IMG/VR virus record: IMGVR_UViG_2609460346_000008
Reading direction: 5' to 3' (one strand)
Source of the DNA: a virus
Taxonomy: Duplodnaviria > Heunggongvirae > Uroviricota > Caudoviricetes
Length of the DNA: 35,868 bases
In this document: positions 23,244 through 29,519 of the stretch, piece after piece
Numbering within the stretch: the stretch's first letter is position 1
Layout: the number at the start of each line of letters is the position of its first letter
Program-made: the position numbers and the translations under genes
The notes under the pieces: model-generated
Told to the model about the DNA's origin: nothing
The model's input: only the letters and a program-made list of their open reading frames with translations
The model's database searches: none

Positions 23244-23494
23244 TGAAAGAATACCGCTATTCCGGCCCGGCCAGCGGCGTCACGCTGTCGGACGGAACCG
23301 AAATCCTGCTCTGGCCGGGGAAGACGGTTTCCCTGCCGGAGGAGCATGACTACGTGAAGGTACTGGTGGCGCTGAAACATCTGACGCCGGTACCTGAAGA
23401 GACTAAACCCGCCGGCACACCGGCTGTGCAGTCACCAAAGCGCAGAAGCAGCAGTGACAGCGAAGTGAAAACGGAGGACATCCATGGCAGCTAA
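23240..23494 (+). CDS. Small protein (84 aa; DUF2635-like) preceding the tail sheath
   Basis: Overlaps neighbouring genes at both ends; position conserved in Mu-like tail modules. Confidence 0.5.
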   Translation: MMKEYRYSGPASGVTLSDGTEILLWPGKTVSLPEEHDYVKVLVALKHLTPVPEETKPAGTPAVQSPKRRSSSDSEVKTEDIHGS

Positions 23495-24911
23495 CTATCT
23501 GCATGGTCCCGAAACCATTGAGGTGGAAAACGGAGCCCGCCCGGTTAAAACGGTGAAATCTGCCGTTATTGGCCTGATTGGTACCGCCCCGATGGGGGAT
23601 GTCAATACGCTGGTACAGTGCCTGTCTGAGAAAGACGCAGCGGCATTTGGCAGCCAGTTCACCGGCTTTACCATTCCGCAGGCGCTGGATGCGATTTATG
23701 ACCATGGTGCAGGTACCGTTCTGGTCATTAACGTCCTCGACCCGGCGAAACATAAAACGGCGATCGAGGATGAGGTGGTTACCTTTGACAAATCGACAGG
23801 GCAGGCCAGACTGGCGCATCCGGTTGTCGCTAATGTGGTGGTGAAAAACAGTGAAGGCAGCACCTCCCACACGGCGAACACGGACTACCGTGTTGATGCG
23901 CAGGCGGGTGTGCTCACGAACCTGGGCAAGGCTATTGAGGCCGGTGGCAGCGTGAAGGTGAGCTATGAGTACGCGGACCCGTCGAAGGTGACTGCGGCGG
24001 ACATCATCGGCGGGGTGAACAGCGCCGGAAACCGAACCGGCATGAAGCTGCTTAACGACAGCTTCAACCTGTACGGCTATTTCGCCAAAATTCTGATTGC
24101 GCCGGTGTTCTGCACCCAGAAGAGTGTCGCAGTTGAGCTTATCGCCATGGCAGAGAAGCTGGGCGCGGTAACCTACATTGATGCGCCTGTCGGTACCACC
24201 TTTGCACAGGCTCTGGCAGGTCGTGGCCCGGAAGGCACCATCAACTTCAATACCAGCTCCGACCGCGTCCGTCTGTGCTATCCGCATGTGAAGGTATATG
24301 ACCCGGTGACAAACACAGAGCGTCTGGAGCCGCTCAGCCAGCGTGCAGCAGGTCTGCGTGCCAGAGTCGATCTGGACAAGGGCTACTGGTGGTCATCCTC
24401 CAATCAGGAGATTCTGGGGATCACCGGCGTGGAGCGCCAGCTGTCCGCGATGATTGATGACCCGCAGAGTGAGGTGAACCTGCTTAACGAACAGGGGATC
24501 ACCACGGTATTCAGCAGTTACGGCAGCGGCCTTCGTCTGTGGGGTAACCGGACGGCAGCATGGCCAACGGTCACCCATATGCGTAACTTTGAGAACGTTC
24601 GCCGCACCGGTGATGTGATCAACGAGTCCATTCGTTATTTCAGCCAGCAGTACATCGACATGCCGATTACTCAGGCGCTGATTGATGCACTGACGGAGTC
24701 GGTCAACGCCTACGGTCGCAAAATGACTGGTGATGGTGCGGTACTGGGCTTCCGTTGCTGGTTTGATCCGGCCCGCAATCCGGAGACGGAGCTGGCCGCC
24801 GGGCACCTGTTGCTGAGCTACAAATATACGCCACCACCGCCGCTGGAGCGACTGACGTTTGAGACTGAGATCACCTCGGAATACCTGTTAACCCTGAAAG
24901 GGGGCAACTGA
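23484..24911 (+). CDS. Contractile tail sheath protein (Mu L-like)
   Basis: 475 aa; followed immediately by the tube gene with ATGA overlap. Confidence 0.8.
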   Translation: MAANYLHGPETIEVENGARPVKTVKSAVIGLIGTAPMGDVNTLVQCLSEKDAAAFGSQFTGFTIPQALDAIYDHGAGTVLVINVLDPAKHKTAIEDEVVTFDKSTGQARLAHPVVANVVVKNSEGSTSHTANTDYRVDAQAGVLTNLGKAIEAGGSVKVSYEYADPSKVTAADIIGGVNSAGNRTGMKLLNDSFNLYGYFAKILIAPVFCTQKSVAVELIAMAEKLGAVTYIDAPVGTTFAQALAGRGPEGTINFNTSSDRVRLCYPHVKVYDPVTNTERLEPLSQRAAGLRARVDLDKGYWWSSSNQEILGITGVERQLSAMIDDPQSEVNLLNEQGITTVFSSYGSGLRLWGNRTAAWPTVTHMRNFENVRRTGDVINESIRYFSQQYIDMPITQALIDALTESVNAYGRKMTGDGAVLGFRCWFDPARNPETELAAGHLLLSYKYTPPPPLERLTFETEITSEYLLTLKGGN

Positions 24912-25432
24912 TGTCAAAGATTGAGATAAACCGCATCACGAATGCCAACATCTATCTGGATGGTACTAACCTGCTGGGACGGGCTGAGGAAGTTAAACTC
25001 CCCGATGTCTCCATGATTATGCAGGAACACAAGGCGCTGGGGATGGTGGGTAAGGTGGAACTCCCGGCTGGTTTTGACAAACTGGAAGGCGAAATCAAAT
25101 GGAACAGCTTTTACCGCGATGCGATGCTGTCTGCCGCGAACCCGTACAGGTCGCTGGCACTGCAGTGTCGTTCCAGCGTCCAGCGCTACAGCTCGCAGGG
25201 GCTGATTGACGAAATCCCGCTGGTCACCTTCCTGACGATTATGTTCAAGAAGAACCCGCTGGGGACGTTCAAACAGCACGAGAACGCCGAGTTCTCCAGT
25301 AGCTTCACCTGCACGTATATCAGACAGGTACTGGATGGTGAAGAGCTGCTGCAACTGGACTATCTGGCCAACATCTTCCGGGTCGGCGGTGTTGATCAAC
25401 TGACTGACTACCGTATCAATATCGGGGGCTGA
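24911..25432 (+). CDS. Tail tube protein (Mu M-like)
   Basis: 173 aa; directly downstream of the sheath gene. Confidence 0.75.
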   Translation: MSKIEINRITNANIYLDGTNLLGRAEEVKLPDVSMIMQEHKALGMVGKVELPAGFDKLEGEIKWNSFYRDAMLSAANPYRSLALQCRSSVQRYSSQGLIDEIPLVTFLTIMFKKNPLGTFKQHENAEFSSSFTCTYIRQVLDGEELLQLDYLANIFRVGGVDQLTDYRINIGG

Positions 25433-25434
25433 CG

Positions 25435-25716
25435 GTGAGTGTTGAACTGACGGATAAAGGAGGACGATGTGCGGCACTGGGCATGTCAAATGGTACGTGG
25501 TTTACCCTCCTTGATATTCCGGGGGTGGAAACCCTTTTTAATACCCGTAAAACCAATGACCCGATTGACTGCACACGTTCAAAGGCCCGCAAACTGGCGG
25601 ATTTGATTGAAGCATGGGAGCCTCCCGACCACTGGTTCTCCGGCACCGGCAAATCTGAGGGAAAGACGCTTCTCATCGCTTTCCTGCGTAACTGCAAGGG
25701 GTTTCGCACTTGCTGA
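25435..25716 (+). CDS. Hypothetical protein (93 aa, GTG start)
   Basis: GTG at 25435 with GGGGG 6 nt upstream; followed by a terminator-like hairpin. Confidence 0.4.
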   Translation: MSVELTDKGGRCAALGMSNGTWFTLLDIPGVETLFNTRKTNDPIDCTRSKARKLADLIEAWEPPDHWFSGTGKSEGKTLLIAFLRNCKGFRTC

Positions 25717-25722
25717 CATCAC

Positions 25723-25745
25723 AGGGGCTCCGGCCCCTTCTTCTT
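25723..25745 (+). terminator. Rho-independent terminator/attenuator after the sheath-tube block
   Basis: 6-bp stem AGGGGC/GCCCCT with loop tccg (25723-25738), followed by TCTTCTT. Confidence 0.5.
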
Positions 25746-25762
25746 AATCTCCTTTAATATCC
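25744..25762 (+). promoter_or_regulatory. Putative late promoter element P3 (ttaatctccTTTAATATCc) upstream of the chaperone/tape-measure operon
   Basis: Copy of TTAA-N5-TTTAAWATC; 3' end 51 nt upstream of the ATG at 25814; a -10-like catact lies about 20 nt downstream of the motif. Confidence 0.4.
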
Positions 25763-25813
25763 GTCACGCGCTTCTCCCGACATACTGCCCTGAACTTACA
25801 CAGGAGCACAATC

Positions 25814-26149
25814 ATGTCACAGACCCCATCCGATACTTTTAAATTGTCTTATCCCTTCACCACTGCTGCAGGCACCAGAATTGAGCTGGTTGAACTGAAA
25901 CGCCTGACGGTAAAAGACCTGAAGCAGGTGCGCAAAATCAGCAAAAACCCGGCAGACTGGGACGAACCGCTGATTGCCCGCAGTACTGGTCTTCTCCCGG
26001 AGGATCTCGACAATATGGATCTGGCTGATTACCTGCAGTTACAGAAACGATTTCAGCTCATCACGGGGATGGGTGAGAGCAACCAGGGCGCTGACGCAGG
26101 CGCAGGGGCTGCTGGCGAGATGGTTCCGGTTTCAGCCGGGGGAGATTGA
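25814..26149 (+). CDS. Tail assembly chaperone (P2 E / Mu gp41-like)
   Basis: 111 aa; located between tube and tape measure; acidic Gly/Ala-rich C-terminus; overlapped by an alternative-frame ORF. Confidence 0.6.
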   Translation: MSQTPSDTFKLSYPFTTAAGTRIELVELKRLTVKDLKQVRKISKNPADWDEPLIARSTGLLPEDLDNMDLADYLQLQKRFQLITGMGESNQGADAGAGAAGEMVPVSAGGD

Positions 26150-26231
26150 TGCCCTCGATACTGACGATCTGGAGATGTGGCTGGAGCAGGCTGAAGAGCA
26201 AATCAAAAGCGAGTACGGCGACAAATCATAG
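25974..26231 (+). CDS. Alternative-frame extension ORF of the tail chaperone (probable frameshift product C-terminus)
   Basis: Overlaps the chaperone ORF in the +1 frame; acidic C-terminus typical of a chaperone extension; a G5 run at 26138-26142 lies in the overlap. Its own ATG has no RBS and is probably not used. Confidence 0.4.
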   Translation: MPAVLVFSRRISTIWIWLITCSYRNDFSSSRGWVRATRALTQAQGLLARWFRFQPGEIDALDTDDLEMWLEQAEEQIKSEYGDKS

Positions 26232-26236
26232 TACAG

Positions 26237-26257
26237 ACAGCCGCCAGTAGCGGCTGT
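26237..26257 (+). terminator. Hairpin (8-bp stem ACAGCCGC/GCGGCTGT, loop cagta) between chaperone and tape measure genes
   Basis: Read from sequence; weak downstream T-tract, so probably an attenuator or mRNA stability element. Confidence 0.3.
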
Positions 26258-26306
26258 TCTGCGTTATCCCCTCACGTCTTTTCACCTTCCCCGGAGGTTA
26301 ACCACT

Positions 26307-29300
26307 ATGTCGGGACAGTTTTCAGTCGGCGTTGTTATCGGCGGGATGATTGGCAGCACATTCCGTTCTGCAATGAGCGGTACCCGCCGTGCGCTTGATT
26401 CCCTGAGCGATACCTCACGCCGCCTGCAGGAACGTCAGAACGCTTTAACCCGTGCAACAGAACGTTATGGTCAACTGGGTTCTTCCCGGATGCAGCATCT
26501 CAACAGCGAGCTGCTGCGGGTAAGCCGCACCATGGAGCAAATTGAGCGCCAGCAGCGCCGTCTGTCAGCGGCATCCGCTACCAGTGATGCGCTGAAAGCT
26601 AACCGCATGGCGCTGTATGGTCAGGGGATTGAAGCGTATGGCATGGCACAGACTGTTTATCATACGGTTTCCCCTGCCGTTCAGCAGTCCATGTCTTTTC
26701 AGGACAAAATGATTGATATGTCGATCACCGCAAAATATGACAATAAAACGCGGGATGCACTTGCCGGACAGATAAAAGGCTGGGCGCTTAAATACAATCA
26801 GTATCAGGATGAGCTGCAGGAGGCGGTGGGTTCACTCATCAGCGACAATATTGATAATGTGTCAGATATCGGTTTTCTGATGCCGGATATTGCCCGCGCG
26901 GCAACGGCAACACGCACGTCTGCTCAGGACTGGGCAAAAGTGGCCGCAGTCTGGCAAAACTCCCTGAAAGGTGCGGCCAGAGATTTTGGTGCCGTTCAGA
27001 ATATTATGGCTTATGCCGGTGACCAGGGGTCATTTGAAATCCCGGATCAGGTCAAGTGGATGCAGTCCCTGGCCCCAATGATGGCGGGTATTGCCAGTGG
27101 AAAAGAGGCTGTTGCTGAAATCGGGGCCAGTCTCCAGATAGCAAAAATCGGTGCAGGTTCCACCGACGAAGCAGCCAATAATTTTAAAAACTTTCTTACC
27201 AAAATTTTTGCCCGCGATACTCAGAAACAGTTTGCTGATCTGGGTATTGATTTGCAGGGATCTATTGCGAGTTATAAGGCTGCGGGGATCTCTCCGATTG
27301 AAGGGATGTTGAGTGTTATAGAACGTTACCTCAATGCCAAAAGCCCCGAAGCGCTGGCCGGCTTCAAATCCGCCATGAAAATAAAGAATGATACGGCAAG
27401 AGATGAGGCACTTCAGGCTCTGGCGAAAAACTTTGGTCTGGGTGATATGTTCGCGGATATGCAGGTCATGGCATTTATCCGCCCGATGCTGGCCAACATG
27501 GACAGATATCGAGAGATCCGTGCCGGTGCTCTCAGGGCTGCGGATAACGATTTGCTTGCCAGTGCTTACGATCAGCGACTGAAATCTCCCCTTGAAGCCA
27601 CTAAAACACTTATGGTCAGCAGTCGCGATCTGGCAATTACGCTGGGCGATCAATTAGCTCCATCTTTTATTTCTTTGACTCAGGAACTGCTTCCACTCAT
27701 TCAGGGGGCAAAACACTGGGTAGCGACTCACCCGCAATTTGTCAGTGGGGCTTTTAAGCTCATCAGTGCGCTCCTTGCGATTAAGATAGCGACTGTTGGT
27801 CTCAAACTGGGGCTGAATCTCCTTATTTCCCCCTTTGTAAGTGTCTGGAAAAATGCTGTTTTACTCCGGACCAACTGGCATCGACTGACTACCGCACTCG
27901 GAGAAGGTGGCAAATTACGCTGGCTTGTCACTGGATTCAGCCGACTGACCAGCGGAGGACTGAAACTCAGCAAAGTTCTGGCGGGCAGCCTCGTTCGCGG
28001 TTTTATGAGCGCTGCACGTGCCGTTCTCTGGATTGGGCGAGCGCTGATGATGAATCCCATCGGTCTCGTTATCACCGCTGTCGCGGCAGCAGCTTACCTT
28101 ATCTACCGCAACTGGGGGGCTGTCAGTGGTTGGTTTAAACAGCGCTGGGCTGACATTCAGGAAGCCTTTAACGGCGGCATTGTGGGAACTGGTAAGTTGC
28201 TGATTAACTGGTCGCCGGCAGGCCTGCTCTATAAAGCCTTTGCGGCTGCGCTGAAATATTTCGGCGTTGCTCTGCCGGCAAAGTTCACCGACTTCGGTGG
28301 CCATCTTATCGACGGTCTGATTAACGGTATCAAAAGCAAATGGGGGTCGCTCAAATCCAGTGTAACCGGAATGGGTGACAGCATCAGTAGCTGGTTTAAA
28401 CAGCGCTGGGCTGACATTCAGGAAGCCTTTAACGGCGGCATTGTGGGAACTGGTAAGTTGCTGATTAACTGGTCGCCGGCAGGCCTGCTCTATAAAGCCT
28501 TTGCGGCTGCGCTGAAATATTTCGGCGTTACTCTGCCGGCAAAGTTCACCGACTTCGGTGGCCATCTTATCGACGGTCTGATTAACGGTATCAAAAACAA
28601 ATGGGGGTCGCTCAAATCCAGTGTAACCGGAATGGGTGACAGCATCAGTAGCTGGTTTAAACAGTGCTGGGCTGACATTCAGGAAGCCTTTAACGGCGGT
28701 ATCGCGGGAACTGGTAAGCTGCTGATTAACTGGTCGCCGGCAGGTCTGCTCTATAAAGCCTTTGCAGCTGCGCTGAAATATCTTGGTGTTGATCTGCCGG
28801 CAAAGTTTACCGACTTCGGTGGCCATCTTGTCGATGGTCTGATTAACGGTATCAAAAACAAATGGGAGTCGCTCAAATCCAGTGTAACCGGAATGGGCGA
28901 CAGCATCAGTGGCTGGTTCAGCGAAAAGCTGGGCATTCATTCGCCGAGCCGCGTGTTTATGGGCTTTGGTGACAATATCGCGCAGGGGGCCGCCATTGGC
29001 CTGCAGCGGACCACTCCGCTTGCAGCTCTGGCCGGGCAGCGAATGGCCAGTGAACTGCTCCCCAGAATGCCCGTGAGCATTCAGGGGCCAGAAATACGGG
29101 ATAACACTTCAGGTGTTCGCTTCAGTATGCCGTTGCCCGATATCAATGGGTTTATGTCGTCTGCTAAAAATGCGATCGGAGCCGTAATCAATAGTTTGTC
29201 TTCCATGCCCGCTATCCCGCTCTCCACCCGGGCATCGATTTTACCAGGGCAACGTCTGGCAAATGAGATGACACCGGATGTTCCCCGTATCCCCTCGCCT

Positions 29301-29519
29301 GAAATCATGGCTGCCGGATATTCAGGCCGTGGTGCAGCTGCAACCGGCGGTGGAACGTCTGGTGGTATCCAGGTCAGCTTTAATCCTCAGTTTTTCCTCA
29401 ATGGCAGGGAAACCACAGCGCCTGCAGGACTGACTGGTGCCCTGAATATGAGTCTGCATGAGCTGGAAAAAATGCTGGAGCGTCTGCTGGCTCAGAAACA
29501 ACGTAAGGAGTACCGCTGA
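26307..29519 (+). CDS. Tail tape measure protein (1070 aa) with internal tandem repeats
   Basis: Longest ORF in the tail module; GGAGG RBS 9 nt upstream; Ala/Gly-rich helical regions plus hydrophobic segments; three 87-aa tandem repeats. Confidence 0.9.
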   Translation: MSGQFSVGVVIGGMIGSTFRSAMSGTRRALDSLSDTSRRLQERQNALTRATERYGQLGSSRMQHLNSELLRVSRTMEQIERQQRRLSAASATSDALKANRMALYGQGIEAYGMAQTVYHTVSPAVQQSMSFQDKMIDMSITAKYDNKTRDALAGQIKGWALKYNQYQDELQEAVGSLISDNIDNVSDIGFLMPDIARAATATRTSAQDWAKVAAVWQNSLKGAARDFGAVQNIMAYAGDQGSFEIPDQVKWMQSLAPMMAGIASGKEAVAEIGASLQIAKIGAGSTDEAANNFKNFLTKIFARDTQKQFADLGIDLQGSIASYKAAGISPIEGMLSVIERYLNAKSPEALAGFKSAMKIKNDTARDEALQALAKNFGLGDMFADMQVMAFIRPMLANMDRYREIRAGALRAADNDLLASAYDQRLKSPLEATKTLMVSSRDLAITLGDQLAPSFISLTQELLPLIQGAKHWVATHPQFVSGAFKLISALLAIKIATVGLKLGLNLLISPFVSVWKNAVLLRTNWHRLTTALGEGGKLRWLVTGFSRLTSGGLKLSKVLAGSLVRGFMSAARAVLWIGRALMMNPIGLVITAVAAAAYLIYRNWGAVSGWFKQRWADIQEAFNGGIVGTGKLLINWSPAGLLYKAFAAALKYFGVALPAKFTDFGGHLIDGLINGIKSKWGSLKSSVTGMGDSISSWFKQRWADIQEAFNGGIVGTGKLLINWSPAGLLYKAFAAALKYFGVTLPAKFTDFGGHLIDGLINGIKNKWGSLKSSVTGMGDSISSWFKQCWADIQEAFNGGIAGTGKLLINWSPAGLLYKAFAAALKYLGVDLPAKFTDFGGHLVDGLINGIKNKWESLKSSVTGMGDSISGWFSEKLGIHSPSRVFMGFGDNIAQGAAIGLQRTTPLAALAGQRMASELLPRMPVSIQGPEIRDNTSGVRFSMPLPDINGFMSSAKNAIGAVINSLSSMPAIPLSTRASILPGQRLANEMTPDVPRIPSPEIMAAGYSGRGAAATGGGTSGGIQVSFNPQFFLNGRETTAPAGLTGALNMSLHELEKMLERLLAQKQRKEYR
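28131..28913 (+). repeat. Three in-frame tandem repeats of 261 bp (87 aa) inside the tape measure gene
   Basis: Unit starts at 28131, 28392 and 28653 (tggtttaaacagcgctgggctgacattcaggaagcc...); copies 1 and 2 nearly identical, copy 3 slightly diverged. Confidence 0.9.

Follow-up and report, generated by a model that had tools for sequence, protein, structure and literature searches.

Whether a ribosome leaves the frame of a phage tail assembly chaperone gene before reaching its stop codon, and where it would do so, is the question raised by a locus in a 35,868-nucleotide stretch of viral DNA (IMG/VR record IMGVR_UViG_2609460346_000008, Caudoviricetes; hereafter the window, numbered from its first letter). 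Here, the open reading frame (ORF) of the chaperone, ORF1, is overlapped by a second one, ORF2. A preliminary description regarded this arrangement as either a rare +1/−2 programmed frameshift or an independent overlapping gene, and pointed to a run of five G residues (the G5 run) near the end of the overlap as the candidate slip site. Sequence comparison, which is the basis of all results presented below, favors the first of these two options: a programmed shift into the +1 frame is the best reading. In our model, the +1 shift would occur at UUU_C and lead into an extension related to E′ of phage P2. The locus would then be a chaperone pair of the gpE/gpE+E′ type in a BcepMu-like prophage with a Mu-type head and a P2-type tail, and the 111-residue protein encoded in the original frame (frame 0) would be the short, major product. 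We assign a probability of roughly 0.75 to this reading as a whole.

The comparison covers 171 intact homologous loci, 98 of them distinct, from Enterobacterales, Ralstonia, Burkholderia, and Pseudomonas. Sixty loci were gathered from species-representative genomes and 80 from viral contigs, and to these were added 25 viral-contig loci of the BcepMu and Pseudomonas Komp_PAO1_1 groups together with reference phages. Codon constraint was counted in 50 representatives sharing <96% nucleotide identity with each other, while start codons were surveyed in 111 distinct loci. In a wider protein profile search, the named matches among the best 120 were from Enterobacterales only.

The chaperone and its +1-frame extension

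The product of ORF1 matches PF10109 (Phage_TAC_7, which includes P2 E, Mu gp41, and gp14) over residues 8–81 with 74.8 bits and E = 5.5e-21, the gathering threshold of this family being 25 bits. It also matches phrog_166, "tail protein", and is named "phage tail assembly protein" by the Prokaryotic Genome Annotation Pipeline (PGAP) or "tail protein E" in phage records. The earlier assignment of ORF1 as a tail assembly chaperone is thus borne out by the PF10109 match. An AlphaFold2 (AF2) model of the 111-residue chaperone has a mean predicted local distance difference test score (pLDDT) of 73, with values >80 over residues 11–80 and <50 over residues 88–111. In this model, residues 5–84 are predicted with confidence as two strands and four helices, of which the last helix comprises residues 70–84 (H70-84). 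The folded domain ends at approximately residue 84 and is followed by a Gly/Ala-rich, low-confidence tail (residues 88–111), such that F80 would mark the end of the folded chaperone domain. A Foldseek search of the model against the PDB gave no match at E < 1.

The 3′ end of ORF1 reads ...tca gcc ggg gga gat tga. An E. coli variant of the chaperone (P0026, locus L087), found on 914 contigs, carries a stop at codon 91 (26084–26086; Q91 in the window) and is only 90 residues long, while its +1 frame stays open. The variant is widespread, and by its length the last 21 residues encoded in frame 0 appear to be dispensable.

ORF2 lies in the +1 frame (equivalently −2) relative to ORF1, as its first position differs from that of ORF1 by 25974 − 25814 = 160 = 3 × 53 + 1. 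The coordinates confirm the 176-nucleotide overlap with the chaperone (25974–26149) noted previously, and the translation confirms the acidic C-terminus of ORF2 (EIDALDTDDLEMWLEQAEEQIKSEYGDKS). The suggestion that this peptide is a genuine chaperone extension also holds. The +1-frame peptide is kept in every intact locus, where its frame is invariably +1 to that of the chaperone, and it is better conserved than the overlapping frame-0 tail. All intact loci share the consensus ...W[VLI]x...LLARWFRFQP[GS]E[IL]..L..[DE][DE]..xW...A..QIK..., and in the alignment of extensions (A4) residues W6, L20, P28, E30, L34, and I50 are invariant. A profile of 16 extensions aligns with P2 E′ with an hhalign probability of 85% (E = 6.6e-6), 10 of the 16 family members match PF06528 (Phage_P2_GpE; best E = 6.2e-6), and PGAP gives the identical ORF the name "GpE family phage tail protein". 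The window's own extension scores 15.8–16.2 bits against PF06528 (E = 0.0075–0.01), which is under the gathering threshold of 23 bits; it matches phrog_8286 with E = 1.2e-19. An NCBIfam scan of the fusion and the +1 ORF gave no meaningful match, and nothing matched the predicted fusion in a sequence search of the PDB.

The pattern of substitutions gives the same picture. In the upstream part, the mean entropy at frame-0 codon positions 1/2/3 is 0.73/0.52/1.29; over 26105–26146 the values are 0.75/0.29/0.19, and past the frame-0 stop they are 1.23/0.56/0.44. Hence, the most variable position moves from frame-0 position 3 (1.29) to the wobble position of the +1 frame (1.23), and selection passes to the +1 frame well inside ORF1. 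The 5′ part of ORF2 (from TTG 25974) is not expected to be translated, because in relatives the +1 frame opens much later.

The +1 ORF might also be an independent small gene with its own start, for example GTG 26073, in which case no fusion would be made. PGAP annotates precisely such a 52-residue "GpE family phage tail protein" from GTG 26073 in a degraded prophage (NZ_CM128601.1), and most loci have some ATG, GTG, or TTG in the +1 frame. However, the best start position is common to only 32 of the 111 loci surveyed, four loci lack any candidate start, and a Shine-Dalgarno-like sequence is present in just 11 of 111. Moreover, GTG 26073 is replaced by GCA, CTG, ATC, or TTA in relatives, an invariant Trp codon lies upstream of it, and the homologous extensions of P2 and Mu are made as fusions according to their record annotations. 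The second option of the preliminary description, an independent gene, therefore lacks a conserved start, and we regard it as very improbable.

The probable position of the frame change

Two limits can be set for the slip. On the 3′ side, the +1-frame Trp codon at 26070–26072 has an entropy of 0 at all three bases and stands between the variable positions 26069 (H = 1.92) and 26073 (H = 1.65). This Trp is invariant in all lineages of alignment A4, so that the change to the +1 frame must be complete by 26070. The 5′ limit is set by +1-frame stop codons: the +1 frame opens at approximately 26037 in one relative (L011), whereas in the phages of Pseudomonas and Ralstonia no more than three open codons precede the TTC homologous to that in the window. 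Together, stop codons and conservation confine the predicted slip to approximately 26037–26069. The sole invariant bases in this interval are CGATTTCA, and the only invariant motif capable of re-pairing is CGA_TTT_C (26048–26054).

TTT_C is present at the homologous Phe in all 98 distinct intact loci. Among the 50 representatives, F80 is encoded by TTT without exception, the next base is C in every case, and 48 have CGA for R79. By comparison, CGA does not occur at R30, the other invariant Arg, which is encoded by CGC, CGT, or CGG, and all other invariant Asp, Glu, Tyr, Pro, and Gly residues vary at the synonymous position. In GC-rich loci, which include the Burkholderia and Pseudomonas phages, TTT accounts for merely 17% of the Phe codons in neighboring genes (80/482), yet 20 of 20 distinct sequences have TTT at the site. 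The residue after Phe is variable (Q, H, R, or L), while the first base of its codon is always C. The contexts are CGA_TTT_CAG/CAA/CAT/CGC/CTG (rarely CGG_TTT_CAG) in enteric and Ralstonia loci, TCC/GCC/TCT_TTT_CGC/CGT in the BcepMu group, and GTG_TTT_CGG and ACG_TTT_CAA in Pseudomonas. In the short intervals of BcepMu, Pseudomonas, and Ralstonia, TTT is the only codon able to re-pair in the +1 frame; were the tRNA on UUU to move by −2, it would meet GAU. A zero-frame UUU followed by a pyrimidine, the feature that defines the UUU_Y class, is found at 26051–26054, and the site lies 96 nucleotides before the frame-0 stop. UUU_Ynn has been described as especially prone to +1 shifts in bacteria, with no need for a stop codon (PMC5009743).

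These findings bear on the G5 run. The run is indeed present near the end of the overlap, as frame-0 GGG GGA just before GAT TGA, and a shift there, either +1 (GGG to GGG) or −2 as on Mu CGG_GGG_CGA, would give a 138- or 139-residue product with only the last 29 residues of the extension. This possibility has its attractions: the run is in frame 0 and 6 nucleotides before the stop, the verified −2 site of Mu is likewise a G5 run near the end of gp41, and GGG to GGG is a perfect +1 re-pairing. Moreover, GGA is a fairly rare codon in E. coli. However, the run is not conserved among relatives, where it is outside frame 0 or absent in many cases, with frame-0 stops 21 or 63 nucleotides upstream. 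The frame-0 tail ends in "...GAAGEVV*" in a large group that is 84% identical to the window (stop 21 nucleotides upstream), in "...SGTTA*" ahead of the G run in Symbiopectobacterium and Arsenophonus, and in "...GMGESN*" in the 99%-identical 90-residue E. coli variant mentioned above (stop 63 nucleotides upstream). Where the +1 peptide has QPSE in place of QPGE, the G run is missing, and some relatives read CAGCCGAGTGA, which likewise lacks a G run. In the +1 frame, the run reads ccG GGG Gag (Pro-Gly-Glu), and the run itself is, by this comparison, accounted for as a by-product of these codons. Finally, a slip at the G5 run would yield a product without the invariant Trp and LLARWFRFQP, the most conserved +1 residues and part of the match to P2 E′. 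A Mu-type arrangement, with a conserved in-frame G5 run and an extension starting just after it, is thus absent among the relatives. The preliminary description had called for a comparison of the slip site in homologues; that comparison identifies as the conserved motif TTT_C, approximately 90 bases upstream of the G5 run, with conserved extension residues in between. Consequently, the G5 run has only a very small chance of being the programmed site, although this particular phage may show incidental low-level slippage at the run.

Frameshift finders and human readers alike prefer slippery runs close to the frame-0 stop, and the mean slip-to-stop distance for PRFect is 26 nucleotides (PMC10885494). 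For the present locus, this rule would select the wrong site, the G5 run.

A fused frame could, in principle, also arise from transcriptional slippage or from a genomic or sequencing indel and not involve the ribosome. Databases hold 138-residue "fused" proteins of this prophage (P0007, P0009, P0023, and P0060). These entries are scattered single-nucleotide indels of the homopolymer-error type, and none of them joins the frames at F80; in addition, the two-frame layout is kept in all 98 distinct loci, and RNA polymerase slippage requires a longer run than T3. This origin of the fused frame is exceedingly improbable.

The 138-residue database fusions were considered as evidence for the junction and rejected, since their junctions lie at the G5 run or at CAGGGC and have the appearance of single-nucleotide indels. 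P0007, P0008, P0009, and P0011 join at 26138–26142, and P0023 and P0060 near 26084–26089, through single-base indels at G runs. In-frame fusions of this kind in public assemblies are probably homopolymer sequencing errors, and they could wrongly be taken for evidence of a frameshift junction. The protein with the predicted junction was not among the matches returned from a collection of 5.8 billion sequences.

The predicted shift and its products

In the proposed mechanism, most ribosomes would stay in frame 0 and make the 111-residue chaperone. A minority would shift +1 with tRNA-Phe in the P site on UUU, codon 80 (26051–26053); the tRNA-Phe would re-pair with the overlapping UUC (26052–26054), and decoding would resume at AGC (26055–26057) in the +1 frame. 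The resulting product would be 138 residues long and consist of chaperone residues 1–80 followed by the 58 residues of E′ (M1...K78-R79-F80 joined to SSSRGWVR...GDKS). Past F80, the two forms would differ: the short form would carry the variable, apparently dispensable Gly/Ala-rich tail, and the long form would carry E′. By analogy with lambda gpG/gpGT and P2 E/E+E′ (PMC5009743, PMC3091744), the N-terminal domain common to both forms would form a coat on the tape measure protein, and tail tube subunits would be brought in by the extension; how much of each form is made would be set by the frameshift efficiency. An efficiency at the percent level would be in keeping with a low demand for the long form of the chaperone [cf. 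approximately 1% for PA-X (PMC3498833) and a ratio of approximately 30:1 in lambda (PMC5009743)]. We infer the ribosomal nature of the shift, its efficiency, and the roles of the products in assembly, and likewise its direction, +1 rather than −2, which is argued solely from re-pairing.

Several points weigh against this model. First, the A-site codon, CAG in the window, is common and not slow (in the GC-rich lineages it is CGN), no Shine-Dalgarno-like element upstream of TTT_C is conserved in the aligned relatives, and no conserved RNA structure is present on the 3′ side, where RNAalifold gives approximately 0 kcal/mol over the 50 representatives. The window's own local hairpin 3′ of the site is not significant (z = −0.8 to −1.9), and an Rfam scan of 25400–26400 with E values up to 1 gave no match. 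Without a slow A-site codon, a Shine-Dalgarno element, or an RNA structure, the site would be minimal, and its efficiency would depend on the intrinsic shiftiness of UUU_C alone. A stimulatory role of the conserved CGA in the E site is speculation. Second, assignment of UUU_Y sites by inspection has failed before: mutation of the proposed UUU-UGG site of YopN-TyeA left the hybrid protein in place (PMC3789692). Third, many of the loci compared are prophages of unknown viability. Fourth, a shift further upstream, after which a +1-frame TTC (Phe) would be translated, would likewise keep the third T of TTT invariant. This account is unlikely, only because the three-codon interval of the Pseudomonas and Ralstonia lineages contains no codon that can re-pair.

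Fifth, frame-0 periodicity persists in the five codons that separate TTT_C from the Trp codon (26054–26068), so that conservation alone leaves room for a slip a few codons 3′ of TTT_C. The shift might accordingly take place elsewhere in 26054–26069, or proceed by a −2 move, a hop, or out-of-frame binding in the A site; ACG_GGG_A at 26063–26069, with its run of four G residues at 26065–26068, is an example. The bases in this segment vary, however. The equivalents of this motif in relatives are GGG_C, GGT_C, GGC_C, GGA_T, AGC_A, and AGC_G, among which no slippery motif is conserved, and the BcepMu and Pseudomonas phages have only two codons between TTT_C and the Trp codon, neither of which can re-pair. 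We consider a shift within this segment, or by one of these other routes, improbable.

With the +1 shift at UUU_C as the preferred model, the comparative data indicate that the pair is a genuine tail chaperone frameshift pair, ordinary in function, and that its predicted UUU_C site is of a type new for the P2-E/Mu-gp41 family. The long product is annotated in none of the records examined (PGAP, PhiKM, and KP12 give the 111-residue protein only). A full-text literature search for UUU_C in connection with phage tail assembly found the site described nowhere, though it may have been described before. More tentatively, and with somewhat less than even odds, we propose that the BcepMu-like clade in Enterobacterales, Ralstonia, Burkholderia, and Pseudomonas uses a stimulator-free UUU_C +1 shift approximately 30 codons before the frame-0 stop. 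It would be the bacterial counterpart of UCC_UUU_CGN in PA-X, and its E-site codon would be under a synonymous constraint that differs between lineages. Provided that this is true and has not been reported, it would be the best-supported case of natural UUU_Y frameshifting in bacteria. It would also add a third recoding solution within one homologous protein family, whose members use −1 (P2 and Pasteurella phage AFS-2018a), −2 (Mu), and apparently +1 on UUU_C. In addition, the locus would offer a natural bacterial system for the tuning of UUU_C slippage by E- and A-site codons, an open question from PA-X.

Genomic setting and known systems

The features discussed here and their neighbors are collected in Table 1. 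The chaperone gene sits between the tube and tape measure genes, with one small gene (25435–25716) intervening. Escherichia phage PhiKM, of the genus Bcepmuvirus, matches the region 25435–26310 with 99.9% identity, and approximately 12% of complete E. coli genomes (641 of 5426) contain this region.

Table 1. Positions of the chaperone pair, the predicted slip site, and adjoining genes in the window
Feature	Position	Strand	Basis
Tail sheath gene	23484–24911	+	PF04984, PF17482
Tail tube gene, P2 FII type, upstream neighbor	24911–25432	+	PF04985, E = 2.9e-53
Small gene, 93 residues, DUF7739-like	25435–25716	+	phrog_1239, E = 4.6e-48; DUF7739 match weak
Tail assembly chaperone, ORF1, 111 residues, ATG start	25814–26149	+	PF10109
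+1-frame ORF2, 85 residues, TTG start	25974–26231	+	Open reading frame
Proposed recoding cassette CGA_TTT_CAG (E-, P-, and A-site codons)	26048–26056	+	Synonymous-site conservation
Predicted slip site TTT_C	26051–26054	+	98/98 distinct loci
E′ extension, predicted to be translated after the shift, 58 codons + TAG, SSSRGWVRATRALTQAQGLLARWFRFQPGEIDALDTDDLEMWLEQAEEQIKSEYGDKS	26055–26231	+	Translation, alignment, phrog_8286
Invariant +1-frame Trp codon TGG	26070–26072	+	Entropy 0 at all three bases
G5 run, frame-0 GGG GGA	26138–26142	+	Direct reading
Tape measure gene, 1070 residues, downstream neighbor	26307–29519	+	PF10145, E = 2e-20; so annotated in PhiKM and by PGAP

PhiKM, KP12, SK1144, and DEF2, the enteric relatives that were checked, have the 93-residue gene inserted between the genes for the tube and the chaperone, while BcepMu has no gene at this place, and only 121 nucleotides separate its tube gene from gp41. 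A terminator-like hairpin at 25723–25738 (AGGGGC-TCCG-GCCCCT, followed by TCTTCTTAAT) separates the DUF7739-like gene from the chaperone gene within what is expected to be a single tail operon. A perfect 8-bp hairpin is present at 26237–26257 (ACAGCCGC-CAGTA-GCGGCTGT), 6 nucleotides past the E′ stop, with 50 nucleotides left to the start of the tape measure gene. As this hairpin lacks a T tract, it was not called in the terminator scan.

The tape measure gene contains three tandem 261-bp (87-residue) units, 95% identical, at 28123–28918. Owing to these repeats, the protein has 1070 residues here compared with 821 (2466 nucleotides) in KP12 and E. coli DEF2, and they also produce a spurious 341-residue antisense ORF (27915–28940). 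The gene is flagged as a pseudogene by PGAP in the 100%-identical strain SK1144, and the PhiKM record has a sequencing gap at the repeats. Since the length of the tape measure sets that of the tail, the repeats predict a longer tail or else mark an assembly-prone repeat. One contig attributed to an actinobacterium (L009, NZ_PJIO01000028.1, "Arthrobacter sp. GMC3"; 8.2 kb, coverage 6.9) encodes a chaperone protein that is 99% identical to that of the E. coli prophage and is most likely a contamination of that assembly.

The preliminary description considered the direction of the shift to be unusual. This was overstated, as tail chaperone frameshifts of −1, −2, and +1 are already on record, that of Mu (−2) being verified (PMC5009743; Mu record), and 350 annotated forward cases were used for the training of PRFect (PMC10885494).

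A close parallel is P2. The short product, gpE, also belongs to PF10109 (E = 1.5e-12 compared with 5.5e-21 for ORF1), and the pair likewise lies between the FII tube and T tape measure genes, in the FETUD operon. The extensions, P2 E′ and that of the window, are homologous, and both shifts would fall at the end of the chaperone domain. However, P2 shifts −1 on T_TTT_TTG, 21 nucleotides before the E stop (PMC3091744), whereas the shift predicted for the window would enter the +1 frame at CGA_TTT_C, 96 nucleotides before the stop. As a result, the short product of the window would have 31 frame-0 residues at its end that the long product lacks. Pasteurella phage AFS-2018a encodes E′ in the −1 frame and carries an A_AAG_GGA heptamer where E ends.

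Mu gp41/Mu_56 has its extension in the same relative frame as the window (+1, equivalently −2), and gp41 is, like the window's chaperone, located between the tube and tape measure genes. Mu gp41 matches PF10109 with E = 2.5e-5 and 24.7 bits, just under the 25-bit cut-off, as well as PF23746. Mu slips −2 on CGG_GGG_CGA near the gp41 stop, verified according to its record, whereas the G5 run of the window is not conserved. No overall homology is detectable between the Mu extension and that of the window family (hhalign probability 0.8%). Nevertheless, Mu, BcepMu, and the window all encode Trp, a hydrophobic residue, and Arg (W-[LVI]-R) soon past differing slip sites: G-E-W-L-R in Mu (L006 1959–1976), F-A-A-W-L-R in BcepMu (L008 2822–2840), and F-SSSRG-W-V-R in the window (26051–26078).

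For BcepMu, gp41 matches PF10109, and the comparative data indicate that the pair would consist of the gp41 chaperone and the gp42 +1 extension, joined at TCC_TTT_CGC (L008 2819–2827). Its GenBank record (AY539836, L008 2603–3364) labels gp42 as the lambda G equivalent and gp43 as the slippage-derived T equivalent. The gp43 ORF has no counterpart in the window, where E′ and the tape measure gene are only 75 nucleotides apart.

Lambda gpG/gpGT follows the same paradigm, in which a frameshift yields two products with a common N-terminus at a fixed ratio, neither of them present in the virion; the binding partner of the common part is the tape measure, and that of the extension is the major tail protein (PMC5009743). 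The lambda shift is −1 and occurs at a low level (gpG:gpGT approximately 30:1; PMC5009743); the likeness to the window is functional, and no sequence similarity is claimed.

With respect to the slip itself, a precedent is PA-X of influenza A virus, where UCC_UUU_CGU directs a +1 shift that was verified by mass spectrometry and involves a P-site slip of tRNA-Phe from UUU to UUC, the codons in the E and A sites being conserved (PMC3498833). Its efficiency is approximately 1%; UUU_C is essential, no RNA structure is needed, and the E-site codon alters efficiency by 40–70% (PMC3498833). PA-X is eukaryotic with UCC/CGU flanks, whereas the window has CGA/CAG flanks and its shift is predicted only. 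BcepMu has TCC_TTT_CGC at the homologous position, and the A-site codon of the GC-rich lineages is CGN. Previous bacterial UUU_Ynn cases are mostly errors or reporter constructs (PMC5009743), whereas the site described here is conserved in phages of both Beta- and Gammaproteobacteria and is followed by a conserved functional domain.

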